A stretch of 12,149 nt of DNA, from UHGV virus genome UHGV-0120264. One strand, 5' to 3'. Made by a program: the position numbers and the translations under genes. This DNA is from a virus. Below the pieces are notes generated by a model. That model was not told the DNA's origin. It searched no databases and saw nothing but the letters and a program-made list of their open reading frames with translations. Shown here one piece after another: positions 1 through 8,221 of this stretch (position 1 is the stretch's first letter; each line of letters begins with the position of its first letter).

Positions 1-24
1 TGTGTACCAAATTGTGTACCAATT
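1..24. repeat. Tandem 12-bp direct repeat (TGTGTACCAAAT / TGTGTACCAATT) just upstream of the integrase start; possible integrase arm-type binding sites or att-proximal sequence
   Basis: Two adjacent 12-mers differing at one base, read directly at positions 1-12 and 13-24. The functional assignment is inference from the position next to int. Confidence 0.4.
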
Positions 25-49
25 TTGACGATGACGAACAGGTATTAGG

Positions 50-1258
50 ATGGCACTCAACGATACAAAGCTGCGACGTATATCCGGAAAAGCATATGAG
101 GGACCTGAGGAGATAGCTGACGGAGGCGGACTTTCTGTCAGGATCAGCCCGAAGGGACTTATCACCTTTCAATACCGCTATCGTTTCAATGGAAAACCCG
201 CCAGGTTAAAGCTCGGAACGTACGGGAAGATGTCGCTTAAGGAAGCTCGCGATGCATTGGAAGAGTGTAAAGGGTGGTTGGAGAAGGGTAAAGACCCAGC
301 CATGCAAAGGAAGAAAGCCAAAGATATTGCATCAAGTTCCCCAAGCATCAGTACCCTAGTTGACGAGTGGTTTGATACTCCTTCAGTAAAAGAGATGGTG
401 AAGTACGAATACTGGAAGCGGATGCTGAAACTTCACATCACCGACAATTACGGTAAGCTGATTGCAGATGAAATGAGTCCTGTAGAGTGGGAGCAAATAT
501 TCATTCGCATAACAAAAGGTGGGTCACCCGTACAGGCGGGAAATGTACTGGTGAAGATGAAGCAAGTGATCCGCTATGCGTTACGCAGAAAACGCATAAC
601 ATCAAATGCACTGATGCTTCTTGAGATTAATGATATCGGCAGTAGACCTAATAATGGCGAACGTTTTCTTAACGATGTTGAGATAGGCGCATTCTGGAAT
701 GCCATCGACAAAACGAAAATGTCGTGGCAAAACAAAATGTTTATTCGAATTGTTGCGTTAACTGGTTGTCGTGGTGTTGAATTGCGGTTGGCTAAGAAGA
801 CTGATTTTGATCTGAAGTCTAGAGAATGGACTATACCGAAAGAGAACTCAAAAACGCGTAAGCGATTTGTTCGCGGTATTTCAAAACTCGCAGCAGATTA
901 TTTGCAGCAGGTATTTGATCTATACCCTGATCTGTCAATCGTATTTCCTCCGGCTAAGTTACAGGAAAATCGCCCAATGTCTGCCAGCACCCTAATTTCT
1001 ATTGCAGAACAGGTAGAAGATGTTATGGGGGGCGAGCACTGGTCATTGCACGATCTGCGCAGAACGTGCAAAACAAAAATGGCTGAACTTGGAGTAGCAC
1101 CTCATGTTTCGGAGAAAATTCTCGGGCATAAGCTCACGGGGATGCTGGCTGTTTATGACCAGTATGACTACATCCCCGAGCAGCAGGACGCAGCAGAATT
1201 ATGGGCTAAGAAAATTCAAGAGTGTTCGGAAATCAATCCTTTATCTTTGCAAAACTGA
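50..1258 (+). CDS. int: Tyrosine site-specific integrase, P4/CP4-57-like, with N-terminal arm-binding domain (DUF4102-type)
   Basis: 402-aa ORF. The N-terminus (LNDTKLRR...DGGGLSVRISPKGLITFQYRYRFNGK...LGTYGKMSLKEARD) matches the DUF4102 arm-binding signature as I recall it. The C-terminus carries the tyrosine recombinase catalytic pattern (HDLRRT...LGHK...VYDQYDY). Confidence 0.9.
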   Translation: MALNDTKLRRISGKAYEGPEEIADGGGLSVRISPKGLITFQYRYRFNGKPARLKLGTYGKMSLKEARDALEECKGWLEKGKDPAMQRKKAKDIASSSPSISTLVDEWFDTPSVKEMVKYEYWKRMLKLHITDNYGKLIADEMSPVEWEQIFIRITKGGSPVQAGNVLVKMKQVIRYALRRKRITSNALMLLEINDIGSRPNNGERFLNDVEIGAFWNAIDKTKMSWQNKMFIRIVALTGCRGVELRLAKKTDFDLKSREWTIPKENSKTRKRFVRGISKLAADYLQQVFDLYPDLSIVFPPAKLQENRPMSASTLISIAEQVEDVMGGEHWSLHDLRRTCKTKMAELGVAPHVSEKILGHKLTGMLAVYDQYDYIPEQQDAAELWAKKIQECSEINPLSLQN

Positions 1259-1446
1259 ATAACTTCCTTGTAGCGAAAGAGGGCGCCGCCTTTCGGTGGG
1301 TGGATTTCTTCCACTTCCCGAGGGAATGGTGTCCCTGATTGCTCCCACTGTTTACGCTTCCGGTAAAAAGTAGTTCTGGAGATACCACCAAGCATCTCCT
1401 GAACACGCTCGCGGTTTATTAGAATCGGCTGAATATTGATTGTCAT
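1216..1446 (-). CDS. xis: Excisionase / AlpA-family DNA-binding protein (Xis-like)
   Basis: 76-aa ORF convergent with int, overlapping its 3' end by about 43 bp. The RERVQEMLGGISRTTFYRKRKQ segment looks like the helix-turn-helix of AlpA/Xis-type proteins. GGAG lies 11 nt upstream of the ATG at 1446. Confidence 0.7.
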   Translation of the reverse strand: MTINIQPILINRERVQEMLGGISRTTFYRKRKQWEQSGTPFPREVEEIHPPKGGALFRYKEVIQFCKDKGLISEHS

Positions 1447-1567
1447 TTGTATGGTTTCTCCATAAAGAAATAAACCGTTCAGTGGCGGTTATTGTCGGTT
1501 GCGGTAGATCTGGCGATCTTGAGAAACTGTCAGGCCTCATCGAGTGTGAGGCTGTATGATTCCATAG

Positions 1568-1912
1568 TTAGTCCTTGCGTAGTTCTCTGATTCTTCTGTA
1601 AGTCTCTGGTGCTTTGTTTCCGTGTATCTTCATTTCAGACTTCAACAGAGCAACGAGAGAATCCCATTCGTTGAGGATGCCTTTGAATGCCGGAACGCGC
1701 TTTGCAACCTTGTCGAATGAATCTCTGATTTCTGGAATCTGCTCAACAAGTGCAACGCATCGTCGGAAATCGGCTGCGTCATGTGGAGCGCCGAAGTGAT
1801 GACCATAGATATTCTTTTTCAGTCCACATGCGATTGAGGCAAGAGTTGCGCTACTGATGCCGACATCGCCAGTCGTTTGCCATTTCAAAATCTTCATAGC
1901 CAAATCTGACAT
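1568..1912 (-). CDS. Hypothetical early-region protein (114 aa from the second Met), function unknown
   Basis: The ORF track starts at 1939, but that ATG lies inside the upstream terminator hairpin. The ATG at 1910-1912 is preceded by GGAG with 7-nt spacing, so I place the start there (MSDLAMKILKW...). I do not recognise a family. Confidence 0.6.
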   Translation of the reverse strand: MSDLAMKILKWQTTGDVGISSATLASIACGLKKNIYGHHFGAPHDAADFRRCVALVEQIPEIRDSFDKVAKRVPAFKGILNEWDSLVALLKSEMKIHGNKAPETYRRIRELRKD

Positions 1913-1925
1913 TTCTTGTCTCCAA

Positions 1926-1946
1926 TAAAAAACCGCCATCAGGCGG
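1926..1946 (-). terminator. Rho-independent terminator (minus strand) after the Zn-ribbon gene
   Basis: On the minus strand: CCGCC-TGAT-GGCGG hairpin (plus 1933-1946) followed immediately by TTTTTTATT (plus 1924-1932). Confidence 0.65.
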
Positions 1947-2012
1947 CTTAGTGTTCTTTCAGTTCTTCAATTCGAATATTGGTTACATTGTTTTCATATA
2001 TGAATAAATAAT

Positions 2013-2192
2013 TTAGCTTTTTTCGTTGCTTCCGCGTTCTTTATTATTTTTACTAAACTCGTTTTTACCGCGCATTCCAAATGCGTCTTTAGAGTTGTTG
2101 TATCCGCAATCACTGCACACATAATCTCCAGACCATCCACGCCTTGTTTTTTCTTTTGCAATATTTCCAGAACCGCATTTTGGACAAGACAT
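2013..2192 (-). CDS. Small zinc-ribbon protein (two CxxC pairs), function unknown
   Basis: 59 aa from the ATG at 2190-2192, which has GGAGG 7 nt upstream; the track's 2225 start is TTG without an RBS. Motifs CPKCGSGN and CSDCGY form a zinc ribbon. The overlapping 1994..2233 ORF in another frame is rejected. Confidence 0.6.
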   Translation of the reverse strand: MSCPKCGSGNIAKEKTRRGWSGDYVCSDCGYNNSKDAFGMRGKNEFSKNNKERGSNEKS

Positions 2193-2245
2193 ATCACTAC
2201 CTCCAAAGCATGAGTGAGATGACAACGTAACATTGATTGGAAATT

Positions 2246-2259
2246 AACAATATATTGTT
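2246..2259. promoter_or_regulatory. Perfect 14-bp palindrome AACAATATATTGTT in the intergenic region between the DUF551-like and Zn-ribbon genes; candidate protein-binding site
   Basis: Perfect dyad symmetry read directly. It is AT-rich, so a protein operator seems more likely than a stable RNA hairpin. Function is inference. Confidence 0.3.
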
Positions 2260-2288
2260 GATGTAAAAGATATGTATAAGATTCGCTA

Positions 2289-2504
2289 TCAGAGCGGCGG
2301 TTCTGGTAGCGGCATCCAGTGGGTTACATTGCGGCTCTGCGTTTCGAAGAACTCCTCACCATTGCGGACAACATCAAAAAACTCACCGTCTCGATATTGC
2401 GCATAAAGAACGAATGCGCCATCACATAAAATAATTACGTGCTGACCATCATCTGGCATTCGCTCACTACAGCTTATCCAACCATCCGGAGTTACCGGAT
2501 ACAC
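2289..2504 (-). CDS. DUF551-family phage protein, possibly 5'-truncated
   Basis: The C-terminal 63 residues (WISCSERMPDDGQHVIIL...VTHWMPLPEPPL) match the DUF551 signature as I recall it. The N-terminal 60 residues of the track ORF are antisense to the Rz fragment and are treated as artefact. The only nearby start is a GTG at 2502-2504 with no RBS. Confidence 0.5.
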   Translation of the reverse strand: MYPVTPDGWISCSERMPDDGQHVIILCDGAFVLYAQYRDGEFFDVVRNGEEFFETQSRNVTHWMPLPEPPL

Positions 2505-2690
2505 AAAGGAGCTTGCTGATGCTAACGCGACTATCGAAAGCCTCCGTGCTGATGTTTCTGCTGGGCGTAAGCGCCTGCAAGTCGCCGCCACCTGTGCAAA
2601 GTCAACGACCGGAGCCAGCAGCATGGGCGATGGAGAAAGCCCAAGACTTACAGCAGATGCTGAACTCAATTATTACCGTCTCAGAAGTGG
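2500..2690 (+). pseudogene. Rz: Rz-like i-spanin gene fragment (C-terminal part only; no start, no TM domain)
   Basis: Frame-1 translation [62 protein letters not shown] aligns with lambda Rz from its YTKELADA motif onward. The frame only opens at 2446 and the preceding residues do not resemble Rz; similarity is lost after about 2686. Confidence 0.75.
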
Positions 2691-2755
2691 AATCGACAGG
2701 ATACCCGCGCAATTGGTCCATCTACTGGTCTGTCTGGATGGGATTTTGTTTCTGA
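2513..2755 (+). pseudogene. Rz1: Rz1-like o-spanin lipoprotein gene embedded in the Rz fragment; native stop lost at a junction, giving a chimeric 80-aa ORF
   Basis: MLMLTRLSKASVLMFLLGVSAC has a signal peptide and lipobox, followed by a proline-rich stretch and NSIITVSE, comparable to lambda Rz1 (PPPPP...LNGIISPSE). It sits in the +1 frame relative to Rz as in lambda. The ORF runs about 20 codons past the expected end. Confidence 0.6.
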
Positions 2756-3410
2756 TGCAGAGCGCCTGATGTTCTCCCGTGAGCTAAACCGCGATATGGG
2801 CATCAGTTACTTCCTGAACCCAGACGATTACCGCAAAGCAGGCCGCAATCTGGTAGATGGTGACATCTTCGGTCGCGTTCCTGAAGAAGCGTATCGCAAC
2901 GGTACTATTCAGCGTCAGATTGCTGGCTTTGATGAAATTCTTCGTTCACCGAAACTTCCGGCAGTTACCAAGTCAACCGCTACTGGTGTAACTGTTTCTG
3001 GTGCGCAGAAGTTTAAGCCGCAGGCATACACCCTTGATACCGATGGTAACAAAGAGAACGTCGACAACCGTGTTGCAACGGTGACCGTATCCTCCGCCAC
3101 CGGATTTAAGCGCGGCGACAAAATAAGCTTCACTGGTGTGAAGTTCCTGTCTCAGATGGCGAAGAATGTGCTGACTGATGACGCGACTTTCTCAATCACC
3201 CGTGTGATCGATAGTACTCACATCGAAATCACGCCGAAGCCGATTGCGCTGGATGACGCGTCACTGACAAAAGAAGAGAAGGCTTACGCTAACGTAAACA
3301 CCTCTCTTGCTGATACCACTCCGGTAAACGTTCTGAACGTGGCAACAACCACCGCTAACGTGTTCTGGGCTGATGACTCAATCCGTCTGCTATCTCAGCC
3401 GATCCCGGTA
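2703..3410 (+). pseudogene. Internal fragment of a P22-type major coat protein gene (roughly residues 130-365 of a 430-aa coat); lacks N- and C-terminal parts
   Basis: Frame-0 translation (...[26 protein letters not shown]...[18 protein letters not shown]...[18 protein letters not shown]) aligns with P22 gp5 as I remember it. The frame opens at 2664 after a stop, and similarity ends at SQPIP, right at the RBS of the next gene. Confidence 0.75.
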
Positions 3411-3421
3411 AGGGGTAATCA

Positions 3422-4786
3422 ATGGCTACTTGGCAACAGGGTATTAATTCTGGTGGTTTTCTGGCTGGCATCGGTACGCAAAATGAGAATGCGCCAAAGG
3501 CAAGCGACATTAACGCAACGCTTGGTCTGATCCGCGAAAACAATGAACTGGCTCGCTCAGGTGCAAATAACGTTGGTCTGACCGCGTTACGTGGTCTGGC
3601 TGGAGTTGCTGATATTTACAATCAGGAACAGCAACAGAAAGCGATTAGTGCGTTCAATAAGGTTCACGCTGATGCATGGGCTTCTGGTGATCCATCGGGA
3701 CTATTTAAGTTTGCCCAGGAAAATCCAGCGTTTGTTGCACAGGCACAACAGGCGTTTTCCGGTCTTAATGAGCAGCAACGCAACGATATGGGCGATTTAG
3801 CCATGAGGGCTAACGTCGCTCTTTCTCAGGGACCGGAAGCCTACAGTAAATTCATTACTGACAACAAGGACAGGTTAAATCGCGTGGGCGCGAATGCTGA
3901 CTGGATGATTCAGACAGGTATTCAGAATCCAGAGCAGCTATCACACATGCTGACTACTATGTCTCTCGGTGCACTTGGGCCAGAAAAGGCGTTTGCTGTT
4001 CAGGACAAGATGGCTGGTCGTGAGATTGACCGAGGCAGACTGGCAGAGACAATCCGCAGCAATCAGGCTGGCGAGGCGCTAACAGCGCGTGGTCAGAATA
4101 TCACGATGCGCGGTCAGGATTTATCGATGCAGAGAGCATCAATGAAAGGGTCGGTTGGGAATAATGAGCGTACAGTTCAGTTAGCAGATGGCAGAACTGT
4201 AACGGTAGGCGGGAAGCTTCACGGCGCTGGGGCTAATGCGTTCTACGAAGGTATCGACAACGAGGGGAATATGGTTCGCGTCCCTGCTGGCTCTATTGCC
4301 GCTCCGGCTACATCGGCAGCAAGCGCGCAGAATTACGCAATGAAGAAAGATCTTGATGCAATTTCTGGTGCATCAATTGACGATCTTGGCTTCATGACTG
4401 GCATTACAGGCTCTTCAGGTTCTCCTGCTCTTGGTGCAGATATTCGTAGCCGTGCATCTGGTGGTGATCAGAGGAAACTATACAACGCTGCACAGCGAAT
4501 CCAAGGAAAGATGCAGAATCAGGGCATTGCAGCAGCCAGAGACATGGGGGCATCCGGTATCAACACCGTTGCAGAAGCAAAGATGTATTTTCAAGGTATG
4601 CCACAGGTTGATTTCTCAAGCCCTGAAGCACTGCAACAATCAATGCGCGACATTCAGCAATATACCGACAATTACAACCAGCAATATAACGTTAATGTTG
4701 GTAAATCTCAGCGGCAGCAATCTCAACCTACACAGGTATCACAGCCAGCAGCCAGCAGTAATTTTTCTTCACTATGGGGTGATTAA
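3422..4786 (+). CDS. Putative ejection (DNA-injection) protein, gp20-like by synteny
   Basis: 454-aa ORF with AAGGGG RBS about 7 nt upstream. Gln/Ala/Gly-rich and low-complexity, sitting between the coat and tailspike genes where P22-like phages encode gp7-gp20-gp16. Assignment rests on synteny and composition, not on recognised sequence identity. Confidence 0.5.
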
Positions 4787-6945
4787 TGGCTAAAGCATGG
4801 AAAGATGTTATCGCCTCTCCACAGTATCAGGCGTTAACTGAAGAACAGAAAGCACAGGCTCAAGCGCAATATTTTGATGAGGTTGTTGCCCCTAAGGCTG
4901 GTGACAAATGGGCTGAAGCAAGAGATCAGTTTTATGCAGCATACCCTCCGCCTCAGCAGCAGAAAGAAGAACCATCATTGATGCAACAAGCTGGCGATTG
5001 GCTCACAGGTGGTCAAAGTGCAGGGCAAATTGCAGAGCAGGCTGGTCGTGGTCTGGTAAACATACCATTTGACGTATTGCAGGGTGGCGCAAGTCTGATT
5101 AATGCAATCAGCCAGGGGCTTGGTGGCCCCAAGGTTTTGGATGATGTTTATCGCCCTGTCGATCGACCTACAGACCCTTACGCGCAAGCCGGTGAAACAA
5201 TTGGTGGGTATCTCCTGCCAATTGGCACAGCGGCAAAAGTTGCTGGAGCGCCAGCAAAGCTCGCTGGAGATATCGGTTCCGCAGGAAACATGATTGCAGG
5301 TTCTCTTGCTGATGCTGCAAATCAGGAGGGCGACTTTGCACAAAATGCTGCCATTAACGGTGGTATCAATATTGGTGCTCAAGGCGTTCTTTCAGGTGTC
5401 GGGCGCGTTATTGCTCCAAGGGTTTCACAGGCTCTTGGTGGTGCAGCACTGAATTCTGCTAATGATGTTTCCAGGATGGCAAAGTCAGGTGCTGGGCGTC
5501 AGTCAATTGCCAGTCAGGCCGCTAATGTGTCCGAAGATGTAGCAAAAGCGGCTGAGTCTGCTGGAATTGATATAAACGCATTAACACCAGGAATGCGATC
5601 TGGAAGTCGTGGAATTGCACAAGCCGAAGGCGCATTGGCATCAACACCAGGAATTGTTCAGGACGCCCATCAGGCAGCATTTAACGAAATATCATCAAAG
5701 TTAAGTCGAAACCTTGATGAATTTGGGGCCGCATCTGGAACGGCATCAGAAAAAAGTGCGGCTATAAAACAAAGGATTCTTCAAAATCTTGATCAGATGA
5801 AGGATGCCGAGCGCGCGGCATGGGATGACGTGCGGTCAACAATGCCAAATCAAAAAGCAAGAATGCTAAATGGTAATGCCGTTATTCAGGCAGAGCGATC
5901 TGCCGGCATACCGCTTACTCCTGAAATGAAACAGTTTGTTCAGGCAAACAATCAAGGTGGAGTAACATTTGATGGCATGAAAGCATGGAGAGCGAAATTT
6001 GCTGATGCGGAGCAAAAATATAAGCGTAGCGGAGAGGCAAATGCGGCAAGGAGAGCAGGGGAAATACGCCGGGCAATTACTGATGATATGCGCACAATGG
6101 CGGAAAACGGCGGATTTCTTGATGACTGGCAAAAAGCTAATGATCTGTCTAAAGCGAGGTTATCAGCACAAGAGAGTGCAGAGTCTGTTTTCGGACGTGA
6201 TTTGGCAACAGATGCACTGATTACGAATGGAGTAAAATCCCTTCAATCATCGTCAGCTAAAGGTCTTAATGGTCCTGCTGGGTTCCATTCTATGATCCGC
6301 GCGCTGCCAGAATCAGAGCGTGTTCCTGCTATATCATCAATGTTGCAAGATGCTATCTCGCATGGTGTACGTGGTGGCAAAGCTGATGCAGCAGGAATTA
6401 ACCATATCGCAGAGATACTCACTCCACAAAATGTAAAAGCCATTAGCCGATATTCCTCAGAACTTGGAAGAATTGCTGATGCATATGGCACTCTTGCAAG
6501 AGCAGCAGTGAAACCTCAGCAGTATATTGAAAGAACAGGGAGAACTGCCAATGTACTACGCGATCTGGATGCCGGTTTATCCAACGTCACATCAACAGTG
6601 TTAAATGCAATTGCCAACTCAACATCAGGTGCCATTGTTGGTGGAGCAGGAGGGGGCATTGCAGGCGCTGCCGCAGGTGCTTTAGTTGGCGCCGGGTTAA
6701 AAGGCGCTGTATCTAAAATTGCCACCACGCGTAGCGGTCGATATGCGATAGAGAAAGCAGTTCAGGAAGCCACGAAAGCAGTAAGAGCTGGCGGAAGTAA
6801 AGAAGCATTAGCGGCGGCGGAACGCAGATTTATGGCAAATAAAGCCGCCGTAAAAGCAATACGTGATGCAGTTGGAAACGAAGAGTTCAATCGCTTAGCG
6901 AGGGCTGGCATTGTAGCGTCGCTAAGCGGAATAGCACAGGAGTAA
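4786..6945 (+). CDS. Putative ejection (DNA-injection) protein, gp16-like by synteny
   Basis: 719-aa ORF whose ATG overlaps the upstream stop (TAATG), suggesting translational coupling. Low-complexity, with a Gly/Ala-rich hydrophobic segment near the C-terminus. Assignment by synteny and size. Confidence 0.5.
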
Positions 6946-7269
6946 TTAATCATCCATGGATGGATTGAGCTTATCTCGTGTTGATGTGGCGATTTGCCCT
7001 ACATTCCTAAGCCAAGATTTCAAATCCTTGATATTGTCATTGATTTCATGAATATCTTCTTTTTTTAGTCTGTTAATATTATTCTCAATAATTTCAATGG
7101 ATTGCTCAATATCAGATATAGTGAATGATAGTTTGTTCTTCTCATCTTTTATTGAGTTTTTAAGTGCTTCGTTCTCAGTCTTGAGGTCAGATATCTTTTG
7201 TTTTAAAGATGCCAGTTGGTACTGAACCACAATGAGTGCGATAGCTATCACGATAACTGTTGTATACAC
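6946..7269 (-). CDS. Small membrane-anchored coiled-coil protein (N-terminal TM helix plus heptad-like coiled coil); accessory gene of unknown function
   Basis: 107 aa from a GTG start with a strong AAGGAGG RBS 5 nt upstream (minus strand). The N-terminus YTTVIVIAIALIVVQY is hydrophobic and the rest is K/E/N/I-rich. The region is visibly AT-rich compared with neighbours. Confidence 0.6.
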   Translation of the reverse strand: MYTTVIVIAIALIVVQYQLASLKQKISDLKTENEALKNSIKDEKNKLSFTISDIEQSIEIIENNINRLKKEDIHEINDNIKDLKSWLRNVGQIATSTRDKLNPSMDD

Positions 7270-7387
7270 ACCAACCTCCTTAGTTTTGAGCAGGATACCA
7301 TGAAAAAAGTAAACATCTTTTGCCTACTTCACATTTGAATGATTTGTCATTAGGATGTTTCCGTTTTTTTTAAATATGGAAATTGAT

Positions 7388-7807
7388 ATGAAGAGGATTA
7401 TTAGCGTCGTTGCTGGCGTTATCATGTTATCTGGGTGCGCAACTATTGTTGGTGATGAAACGCAACTTGTGCAAGTGAACAGCAATCCTTCTGGCGCGAG
7501 CTTTAAGGTAAAAGATGAGTCAGGTGTGATTGTTGCGCAAGGTAAGACCCCACAAGGTGTAACGCTCGCCAAGTCAGATGGTAGCTATTTTGGCAAAAAG
7601 AGCTACCAGATCACTATGGAGAAGGATGGGTATGAACCAGTTACCCTGCCAATCAAAGCCAATGCTAATGGTTGGTATATTGGTGGGAACCTTGTGTTTG
7701 GTGGGTTAATTGGTTGGCTTGCTGTAGATCCATTTAATGGTGGAATGTATACCTTGAAGCCAAAAGAGGCAAATGCATCACTTATACCGTCCACAAAGCA
7801 AGACTAA
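7388..7807 (+). CDS. Putative lipoprotein (139 aa) with a C-terminal glycine-rich hydrophobic segment
   Basis: MKRIISVVAGVIMLSGC is a signal peptide with lipobox. The C-terminal WYIGGNLVFGGLIGWLAV is glycine-zipper-like. I take the ATG at 7388 rather than the track's 7355 because the signal peptide begins there. Divergent from the 6946..7269 gene. Confidence 0.65.
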   Translation: MKRIISVVAGVIMLSGCATIVGDETQLVQVNSNPSGASFKVKDESGVIVAQGKTPQGVTLAKSDGSYFGKKSYQITMEKDGYEPVTLPIKANANGWYIGGNLVFGGLIGWLAVDPFNGGMYTLKPKEANASLIPSTKQD

Positions 7808-7814
7808 TAAATGG

Positions 7815-7840
7815 AACCCACCATCAGGTGGGTTTTTTGT
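7815..7840. terminator. Bidirectional rho-independent terminator between the convergent lipoprotein and mnt genes
   Basis: AACCCACC-ATCA-GGTGGGTT hairpin followed by TTTTTTG on the plus strand, with an A-rich tract on the other side. The mnt stop codon lies in the loop. Confidence 0.7.
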
Positions 7841-8075
7841 ACAAATCTTTCAGCGTATCAAACACCATCTTCTTAACAAGTTCGGACTGCTCATCAGCGA
7901 TTCGTTCCGCATCGTCTCGATAGCCTGAAATTTTGGATGGCTTTGATACAGCATCAGTCACTATCTGAACTAATTCTGAATTAAGAGAGCGGCAATTGGA
8001 TTTGGCTCGCTGTTTTAGTTTTTCCTTTAATTCGTAAGGTAGCCGCAGATTAAATTGCGGGTCATCTCTTCCCAT
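7824..8075 (-). CDS. mnt: Mnt-like ribbon-helix-helix repressor (P22 immI-type)
   Basis: 83-aa product MGRDDPQFNLRLPYELKEKLKQRAKSNCRSLNSELVQIVTDAVSKPSKISGYRDDAERIADEQSELVKKMVFDTLKDLYKKPT is near-colinear with P22 Mnt as I recall it. GAGG lies 8 nt upstream of the ATG. Confidence 0.85.
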   Translation of the reverse strand: MGRDDPQFNLRLPYELKEKLKQRAKSNCRSLNSELVQIVTDAVSKPSKISGYRDDAERIADEQSELVKKMVFDTLKDLYKKPT

Positions 8076-8138
8076 TCTTGATGCCTCGCTTTTGTGAGTG
8101 GATCGGCATCTTATTATCTGCTGGTTGCATCCTCAATA

Positions 8139-8153
8139 AGACCACTGTGGTCT
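8139..8153. promoter_or_regulatory. Candidate Mnt operator: perfect 15-bp palindrome AGACCACTGTGGTCT, with a second CACTGTGG core at 8176-8183
   Basis: Perfect odd-centred palindrome read directly, 64-78 bp upstream of the mnt start. It resembles the P22 Omnt palindrome (AGGTCCACGGTGGACCT) in form and partly in sequence. Confidence 0.55.
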
Positions 8154-8221
8154 CTTTGTTTGATTAATAATGCATCACTGTGGCAATGCTGCAGCGATTC
8201 CTTTTATCTGGAGCAGATTAA

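Follow-up and report, generated by a model that had tools for sequence, protein, structure and literature searches.

Three internal-deletion junctions within 1 kb of a P22-like prophage remnant next to thrS in Escherichia coli

In the UHGV virus genome UHGV-0120264, a stretch of 12,149 bp that is referred to here as the window, the coding content changes three times between positions 2446 and 3425. The 3' part of a DUF551-like gene abuts a piece of the lysis genes Rz/Rz1, this piece abuts an internal segment of a phage coat gene, and the coat segment ends immediately before the ejection gene 20. This locus raises the question of whether these three junctions, here named J1, J2 and J3, are real, how they were formed, and whether what is left of the element has been kept by selection. 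In our reading, which we hold with high confidence, the window is a cryptic (defective) prophage of the P22-like (Lederbergvirus) type located in E. coli between espL1/yniD and thrS, and the 1 kb in question carries the scars of three internal deletions.

The evidence that carries this reading comes from E. coli E4, which has a full-length prophage of approximately 40 kb at exactly the same chromosomal site, with the same integrase, tailspike and acyltransferase. BLAST searches and base-by-base three-way alignments, in which E4 coordinates are those of the extracted locus L006, assigned each part of the window to its counterpart. Window positions 1-2501, from the left end through DUF551, match E4 6868-9368 with 99.8% identity; positions 2495-2711, with Rz/Rz1, match 24568-24784 with 97.2% identity (99.1% to phage Sf101); and positions 2697-3411, from the coat gene, match 32091-32805 with 99.6% identity. 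Positions 3409-5211, comprising the gene 7 stop codon, gene 20 and the start of gene 16, match 37103-38905 with 98.2% identity, and positions 8175-12149, the tailspike and acyltransferase end, match 43103-47077 with 99.2% identity. A preliminary description, made from the letters of the window, had proposed that such segments lie many kb apart in an intact genome, and they do: the retained segments are colinear with the E4 prophage, in which they are separated by 15.2, 7.3 and 4.3 kb. The same description had placed the junctions at about 2480-2500, 2686-2705 and 3408-3412, in good agreement with the mapped positions of 2498-2501, 2700-2703 and 3409-3411, and its naming of the DUF551-like gene, Rz/Rz1, the internal coat segment and the gp20-like gene was borne out by Pfam in each case. 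When 15,206, 7,321 and 4,300 bp are taken out of the E4 sequence, approximately 26.8 kb in total, window positions 2470-3500 (1,031 nt) are rebuilt with 7 mismatches and no indels. Related genomes with full-length coat and Rz genes had been thought to speak against the junctions; E4 is such a genome, and it supports the deletion reading rather than refuting it.

J1 (2498..2501) joins the 3' part of the DUF551 gene to an internal Rz fragment at a GATA microhomology, with the junction 31-mer GGAGTTACCGGATACACAAAGGAGCTTGCTG. Three-way alignments and the reconstruction place 15,206 bp of E4 sequence in this gap, containing the remaining early-left operon, the immunity, replication and nin regions, Q, the holin and endolysin genes and the 5' end of Rz. 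The DUF551 (eaA-like) gene is on the minus strand, and its remaining 3' part spans 2289..2501. The DUF551 domain is complete (Pfam profile positions 1-67 of 68, at residues 63-125 of the open reading frame [ORF] 2292-2669), and the native N-terminal part of the gene is deleted. The open frame continues to 2669 through antisense Rz sequence, and homology of the fragment to E4 and to two other remnants at the same site, in E. coli EC24 and TUM10008, stops at 2499-2501. J1 sits in the 3' arm of a small DNA hairpin (upper stem at window 2484-2500; ATCCGG-AGTTA-CCGGAT) with a free energy of -8.3 kcal/mol and a z score of -4.4.

J2 (2700..2703) joins Rz/Rz1 to the internal coat fragment, with an exact GATA that is embedded in an imperfect homology of 13/15 positions over 2697-2711; the junction 31-mer is GAATCGACAGGATACCCGCGCAATTGGTCCA. 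Relative to E4, 7,321 bp are deleted, containing the 3' end of Rz, rha, the terminase, portal and scaffold genes and the 5' end of the coat gene. Between J1 and J2, on the plus strand, lies an Rz (i-spanin) fragment of 206 bp (2498..2703; nt 179-384 of 438) with a Pfam Phage_lysis match (40-115/126) and 99.1% identity to the Rz gene of Sf101. The preliminary description had taken this piece for the 3' two-thirds of the gene; it is an internal 47%, in which the last 18 codons and the sequence for the N-terminal membrane anchor are missing. The embedded gene for Rz1 (o-spanin lipoprotein; 2519..2755, plus strand) has all 61 native codons and a full Pfam Rz1 match (1-41/41), but its stop codon was changed from TAA to TAC through J2, so that the ORF gains 17 out-of-frame coat codons and would give a 78-aa product. 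With Rz partial and Rz1 deprived of its own stop, the window does not contain a functional two-component spanin pair.

J3 (3409..3411) falls on a TAA microhomology that is the stop codon of gene 7, so that the coat fragment is joined to this stop codon and gene 20 keeps both its coding sequence and its ribosome-binding site. The junction 31-mer is CAGCCGATCCCGGTAAGGGGTAATCAATGGC, and the 4,300 bp deleted relative to E4 contain the 3' end of the coat gene and genes 4, 10, 26, 14 and 7; functions for head completion and for the needle are among those lost. That the coat segment stops at the ribosome-binding site of the gp20-like gene had been noticed before, and this site (AAGGGG, 3410-3415) is the native one. 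The remaining piece of the coat gene (P22-type major capsid; 2700..3411, plus strand, 712 bp) corresponds to nt 397-1108 of 1296 and is 99.6% identical to the E4 coat gene. Read from an internal ATG, it matches Pfam P22_CoatProtein over positions 155-368 of 423, in an ORF at 2769-3530 (253-aa product) that runs out of frame into gene 20. A P22 gp5-type major capsid protein is a full-length coat of approximately 430 aa, of which this internal part is all that is left.

The junctions are genuine features of a circulating lineage, because the chimeric ORFs that they create recur in independent assemblies. No fewer than six assemblies of independent origin, in ENA, NCBI and Logan, have the same junctions. 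Scaffold_42 of ENA assembly ERZ28585241 (163 kb) is 100% identical to the window across 12,149 bp, the NCBI isolate assembly GCA_029947585.1 is 100% identical as far as its contig end, Logan SRR36245397 differs from the window by one indel, and Logan ERR1622471 has J1 to J3 together with an additional 769-bp deletion in gene 16. The exact 253-aa product of the coat-fragment ORF is present in Logan SRR34895725 and SRR23999432, in contigs that cover J2 and J3 with 99.85% and 100% identity, and the exact 78-aa product of the Rz1 fusion is present on nine contigs from independent assemblies; J1 was verified via longer contigs that were located with the Rz1-fusion ORF. For the minus-strand ORF made of DUF551 and antisense Rz sequence, with two alternative starts, no exact-protein record was found. 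The exact J2 28-mer gave no match in GTDB species-representative genomes or JGI metagenomes, and none of the 5,426 complete RefSeq E. coli genomes carries J1, J2 or J3. It is conceivable that the junctions are assembly chimeras from collapsed repeats shared with other lambdoid prophages, as E. coli genomes contain multiple copies of Rz and DUF551 sequences and both short Logan contigs break at window position 2653. However, the identical arrangement was obtained in at least six assemblies by various projects and assemblers, among them the identical 163-kb scaffold and the NCBI isolate assembly, and we regard the chance that the junctions are chimeras as negligible.

Several points weigh against the reading of the junctions as three deletion scars. 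Their authenticity is derived from assembled contigs, and E4 is a mosaic relative rather than a direct ancestor (Rz is 97.2% identical, and gene 16 and the immI region differ), so that the deletion sizes are estimates. In addition, the overlap at J1 shrinks to GA when EC24 is taken as the left parent. Finally, no genome with just one or two of the junctions is present among the 5,426 complete E. coli genomes, so that three separate steps are a presumption.

A check for microhomology at each junction had been suggested in the preliminary description, and it was positive throughout: one copy was kept of a short sequence that is found at both parental sites, namely GATA at J1, GATA within the 13/15 homology at J2 and TAA at J3. 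No inserted bases are present at J1 to J3, where the parental segments abut directly, and no insertion sequence (IS) element, transposon end, att-type site or repeat family was found at these junctions. Judged from these sequences, the deletions were most likely formed by microhomology-mediated illegitimate recombination. Each deletion would have resulted from recombination between two sites sharing three to four bases, with one copy kept, by a RecA-independent short-homology route, either through replication slippage or template switching or through microhomology-guided end joining after a break. Three such deletions would leave two short islands, of 206 bp (Rz/Rz1) and 712 bp (coat). This scheme, with its enzymatic route and with the number of events and their order, is inferred; the fragments are probably non-functional, because the membrane anchor of Rz and both ends of the coat gene are lost and no promoter-like site was found in window 2280-3420. 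The classic deletions in E. coli lacI, associated with Albertini (1982) and with Glickman and Ripley (1984), are reportedly also located between short repeats, often beside palindromes. As in those deletions, one copy of a 3- to 4-nt repeat is kept and the interval is lost, with J2 lying in the 13/15 homology and J1 in a hairpin arm; unlike them, the intervals lost here are 4 to 15 kb, far longer than in typical slippage events.

The number of events is the part of this scheme that can be read in another way. J1 and J2, and perhaps J3, might stem from one complex replication-based event, in which a nascent strand, after stalling or breakage, switched template forward two or three times via 3- to 4-nt microhomologies and copied the 206 bp of Rz and the 712 bp of coat in passing, similar to microhomology-mediated break-induced replication (MMBIR) or fork stalling and template switching (FoSTeS). 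Such an event would fit with segments that are colinear and in the same orientation, with 3 to 4 nt of microhomology at every junction, and with retained islands that are very short compared to the deleted spans. Short islands recur in the siblings (145 bp of terminase in TUM10008 and 314 bp of gene 26 in EC24), EC24 is essentially identical in the flanks yet has none of the three junctions, and the lack of single-junction intermediates noted above is also in keeping with this idea. On the other hand, stepwise decay will produce short islands as well after enough deletions, the ERR1622471 sublineage shows that single extra deletions arise one at a time, and intermediates that have not been sampled are weak evidence. 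We consider a single event to be a tentative possibility, on the unlikely side.

With regard to the element itself, several lines of evidence identify it as a P22-like prophage. BLAST of the window against phages matched HK620, Sf101, Louie and the E4 prophage, and the Pfam families P22_CoatProtein, Inj_translocase, Phage_P22_gp16, Repressor_Mnt and Head_binding are represented. Homology and gene order are P22-like, and the element is integrated in the chromosome between host genes with an integrase at one end: the 12-kb remnant adjoins thrS, and the same element is located between espL1/yniD and thrS in RefSeq E. coli genomes and also on the 163-kb scaffold with the identical sequence. In their host flanks, E4, EC24, TUM10008 and the contig that contains the window are 99.97 to 99.98% identical to one another. 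The gene order in the window is integrase, an excisionase-like gene, small ea genes on the minus strand, the 3' part of DUF551, the Rz/Rz1 piece, the coat piece, genes 20 and 16, an immI-type region with Arc/Mnt, the tailspike and a hexapeptide acyltransferase. Repressor/cro, replication, Q, holin, endolysin, terminase, portal and scaffold genes and genes 4, 10, 26, 14 and 7 are all absent from the ORF list of the window. Genes indispensable for lytic growth are thus missing and coat and Rz are represented by fragments only, in agreement with the earlier view that replication, lysis and head genes had been lost; the remnant is unable to replicate, to lyse the cell or to build heads.

The integrase gene (50..1258, plus strand) is full length in the ORF list, with 402 aa, and an identical gene is annotated in EC24 and E4 in RefSeq; Arm-DNA-bind_3 and Phage_integrase domains were recognized by Pfam on the identical gene (locus L009). 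Gene 20 (3412..4786, plus strand, including the native spacer between genes 7 and 20) starts with an ATG at 3422, encodes 454 aa, is intact with a match to Inj_translocase, and is equal in length to the E4 gene. Gene 16, which encodes another ejection protein (4786..6945, plus strand; 719 aa; PF26808), is likewise intact and 97.7% identical to that of phage Louie. The preliminary description had listed the ejection genes as intact, which applies to the full-length genes 20 and 16, while gene 7 is gone save for its stop codon. The right-end block (7824..12123, both strands) consists of the Arc/Mnt repressor (7824-8075, minus strand), the tailspike (about 8501-11233, plus strand; 910 aa) and the hexapeptide acyltransferase (11389-12123, minus strand). 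The tailspike has a head-binding N terminus and a weak Peptidase_S74 match at its C terminus, and the hexapeptide-repeat acyltransferase gene is convergent to it and lies about 370 bp from thrS; the two together occupy window 8348-12123. Between the two segments that match E4, the block at 5212-8174 contains, besides the 3' part of gene 16 and Arc/Mnt, an ORF of 107 aa on the minus strand and a putative lipoprotein of 150 aa with a weak match to PEGA; it is not homologous to E4 or just 68 to 72% identical. Outside the window, an imperfect direct repeat of approximately 110 bp with 88% identity is present on both sides of the E4 prophage (L006 6628-6736 and 47263-47372), and since the right copy sits directly upstream of thrS, the att sites are probably in the thrS leader region, with the window stopping short of both.

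The remnants at this site bear on whether the genes that are left have been selected. EC24 differs from the window by a single base among 10,928 shared bases and has none of J1 to J3. It retains the full DUF551 gene, ssb, a Rad52-type annealase gene, the 314-bp gene 26 island and a 5'-truncated gene 20. TUM10008 has an IS1 within int, the 145-bp terminase island, the scaffold gene and the 5' 80% of the coat gene but lacks genes 20 and 16; its IS1A insertion in the integrase gene (L002 6869-7637) is bordered by a 9-bp target duplication, and this remnant is no longer excisable. In ERR1622471, the 769-bp deletion truncates gp16 at a CTAA microhomology (L011 4194-4197, corresponding to window 6149-6152 and 6918-6921), and SRR36245397 (L010) has a deletion of 1 nt near window 7059, by which the minus-strand ORF of 107 aa is cut short. 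The remnant is inherited vertically, and as these last two deletions are each found in a sublineage, its decay is still under way. Since EC24 and the window are nearly identical outside the deleted parts, each lineage has seen approximately three large deletions per approximately one substitution in 11 kb; by this comparison, the deletions are recent and decay has been fast relative to substitutions.

Only the left ea genes and the right block of Arc/Mnt, tailspike and acyltransferase are common to all remnants at this site. The int and ejection genes are dispensable, as int, gp20 and gp16 are disrupted, truncated or absent in siblings, and the earlier proposal that the window has kept a selected subset of functions is not sustained: retention of int and the ejection genes does not, for the most part, look selected, while selection may act on the acyltransferase and tailspike end. 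A promoter scan of window 2280-3420 gave no promoter-like site and chance-level matches only; as the native late promoter is deleted as well, expression of genes 20 and 16 is doubtful.

These data also bear on the opposite view, that the window is a functional, streamlined mobile element, such as a phage satellite or a domesticated module, in which selection has preserved int, gp20, gp16, the tailspike and the acyltransferase and the junctions are adaptive fusions. It is true that the window has full-length versions of int, gp20, gp16, Mnt, the tailspike and the acyltransferase, that the right-end block is present in every sibling, and that a remnant in E. coli O104:H4, discussed below, likewise retained its tailspike and acetylase. 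However, the window lacks a replication module, a small terminase or pac region and capsid-redirecting genes. IS1 interrupts int in TUM10008, where neither gp20 nor gp16 is left, and truncated forms of gp20 and gp16 are found in EC24 and ERR1622471, respectively; no promoter-like signal is found upstream of gene 20, and the fused ORFs are read out of frame. A functional element of this kind is, in our judgment, very improbable, and decay of a defective prophage is the reading that we retain. Assignment to a phage satellite similar to the phage-inducible chromosomal islands (PICIs) was rejected specifically: neither replication/primase genes nor packaging or capsid-redirecting genes are among the ORFs and Pfam matches of the window, and the small terminase gene, which carries pac, is one of those deleted.

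Beyond the three junctions, 12 junctions were mapped in four remnants, that is, the window, EC24, TUM10008/ERR1622471 and an unrelated P22-like remnant in E. coli A2 next to csc/dsdA. The dinucleotide TA lies within 9 of the 12 microhomologies (GATA, GATA, TAA, TA, TAT, TA, CTAA, TA and TA; those without TA are AA, GAAC and AT), and four of these nine junctions have a GATA left parent. For random position pairs in the E4 prophage, TA is expected in 3.6, 7.5 and 11.4% of overlaps of 2, 3 and 4 nt, respectively. Thus, 9 TA microhomologies were observed versus 0.8 of 12 expected (P of about 2.5e-9), a value that is to be read with the criterion being post hoc, the parents being proxies and the events in one remnant being perhaps not independent.

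In addition, two breakpoints were used more than once. On its left side, J1 breaks at a DUF551 base (...ACCGGATA) that was also used in A2 (L013, NZ_CP160188.1, 9031-9053), where it is joined to another position, near the start of Rz. This base does not coincide with the natural mosaic boundary, because it lies 7 to 8 nt inside a block that is conserved in ten natural DUF551 genes before they diverge; the natural continuation was defined by these ten enterobacterial matches, an 18-mer scan of species-representative genomes having otherwise given mostly chance matches. In a 3'-5' exonuclease gene, the breakpoints of EC24 (L001 8957) and TUM10008 (L002 10915) are within 2 nt of each other (E4 11643 and 11645), with opposite sides kept. 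This site (E4 [L006] 11640-11663) falls within an inverted repeat whose stem is 8 bp long, CGGTATTC-gggtcaaa-GAATACCG. Taken together, the 18 parental breakpoints show no enrichment of inverted repeats (mean best stem, 2.4 versus 2.5 at random positions), and stems of at least 6 bp occur among them at the two re-used sites only. It is conceivable that deletion formation in P22-like prophages is directed by sequence or structure, via hairpin-stalled replication with serial template switching or via a TA-preferring nuclease or topoisomerase, and that it serves as a dedicated route of fast inactivation, but we regard this as speculative and rather improbable. The TA bias and the re-use of breakpoints are suggestive rather than established.

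Other P22-like remnants were seen alongside. In A2 (L013 11715-14912), two deletions (microhomologies AT and TA) have fused segments of the terminase, portal and gene 26 into a chimeric ORF of 1,066 aa, which is annotated as terminase large subunit. A third P22-like remnant, at the sbcB site of E. coli ET670 (L014, NZ_CP100930.1, 7500-12800), has an early-left gene with an ASCH domain directly next to the endolysin gene's 3' end, and the interval from immunity through replication to holin is thus again deleted; genes 10 and 7 are partial, and IS3 and IS1 are located in the tailspike gene. Of three loci taken from a wider BLAST sample, two were complete prophages, and the third, ET670, offered no usable parent on one side of each junction.

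A similar remnant has been reported for the E. coli O104:H4 outbreak strain of 2011, in which a P22-like remnant kept the tailspike and a downstream acetylase gene and for which the corresponding locus of strain 55989 is occupied by the complete prophage (Scholl et al. 2012, PMC3303846). The two cases have in common gene loss by deletion, an intact tailspike with an O-antigen acyl- or acetyltransferase gene downstream and a full-length relative at the same locus. They differ in the chromosomal site and in the tailspike, which has 659 aa in O104:H4 and 910 aa here; also, PMC3303846 does not give the O104:H4 junctions at base resolution, whereas here three junctions lie within 1 kb and Rz/Rz1 and coat islands are kept. 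Compared with the intact phages HK620, Sf101, Sf6, CUS-3 and Louie, the window has the same order of int-xis-ea...Rz/Rz1...coat...7-20-16-immI-tailspike-O-antigen modification, with 88 to 99% DNA identity in the retained pieces, but approximately 27 kb of that order is missing from it.

Prophage decay by deletion is a general model (Lawrence, Bobay and Casjens, cited in PMC6379469). The cryptic or "grounded" lambdoid prophages DLP12, Rac, Qin and e14 of E. coli K-12 have lost lytic functions via deletions and IS insertions, are inherited vertically and vary between close strains, all of which resembles the situation described here. Unlike them, the thrS remnant is very young (1 substitution per 10.9 kb relative to a sibling with other deletions), and a near-isogenic full-length copy allows each scar to be assigned to its parents. 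The locus is thus a case of ordinary prophage decay, a known kind of feature, of which it is a well-resolved new example.

For annotation, this means that the chimeric ORFs (DUF551 with antisense Rz, Rz1 with 17 additional aa, and the coat fragment) are to be flagged as pseudogenes. The locus shows at base resolution how a host can come to carry a disarmed temperate phage, with approximately 27 kb of lethal and structural genes gone in three cuts and host-surface genes left at the end of the prophage. Together with its relatives, one full-length copy and at least four nearly identical copies that have decayed differently, the thrS-site family forms a small natural time series for the rate of deletion versus substitution and for the re-use of breakpoints.

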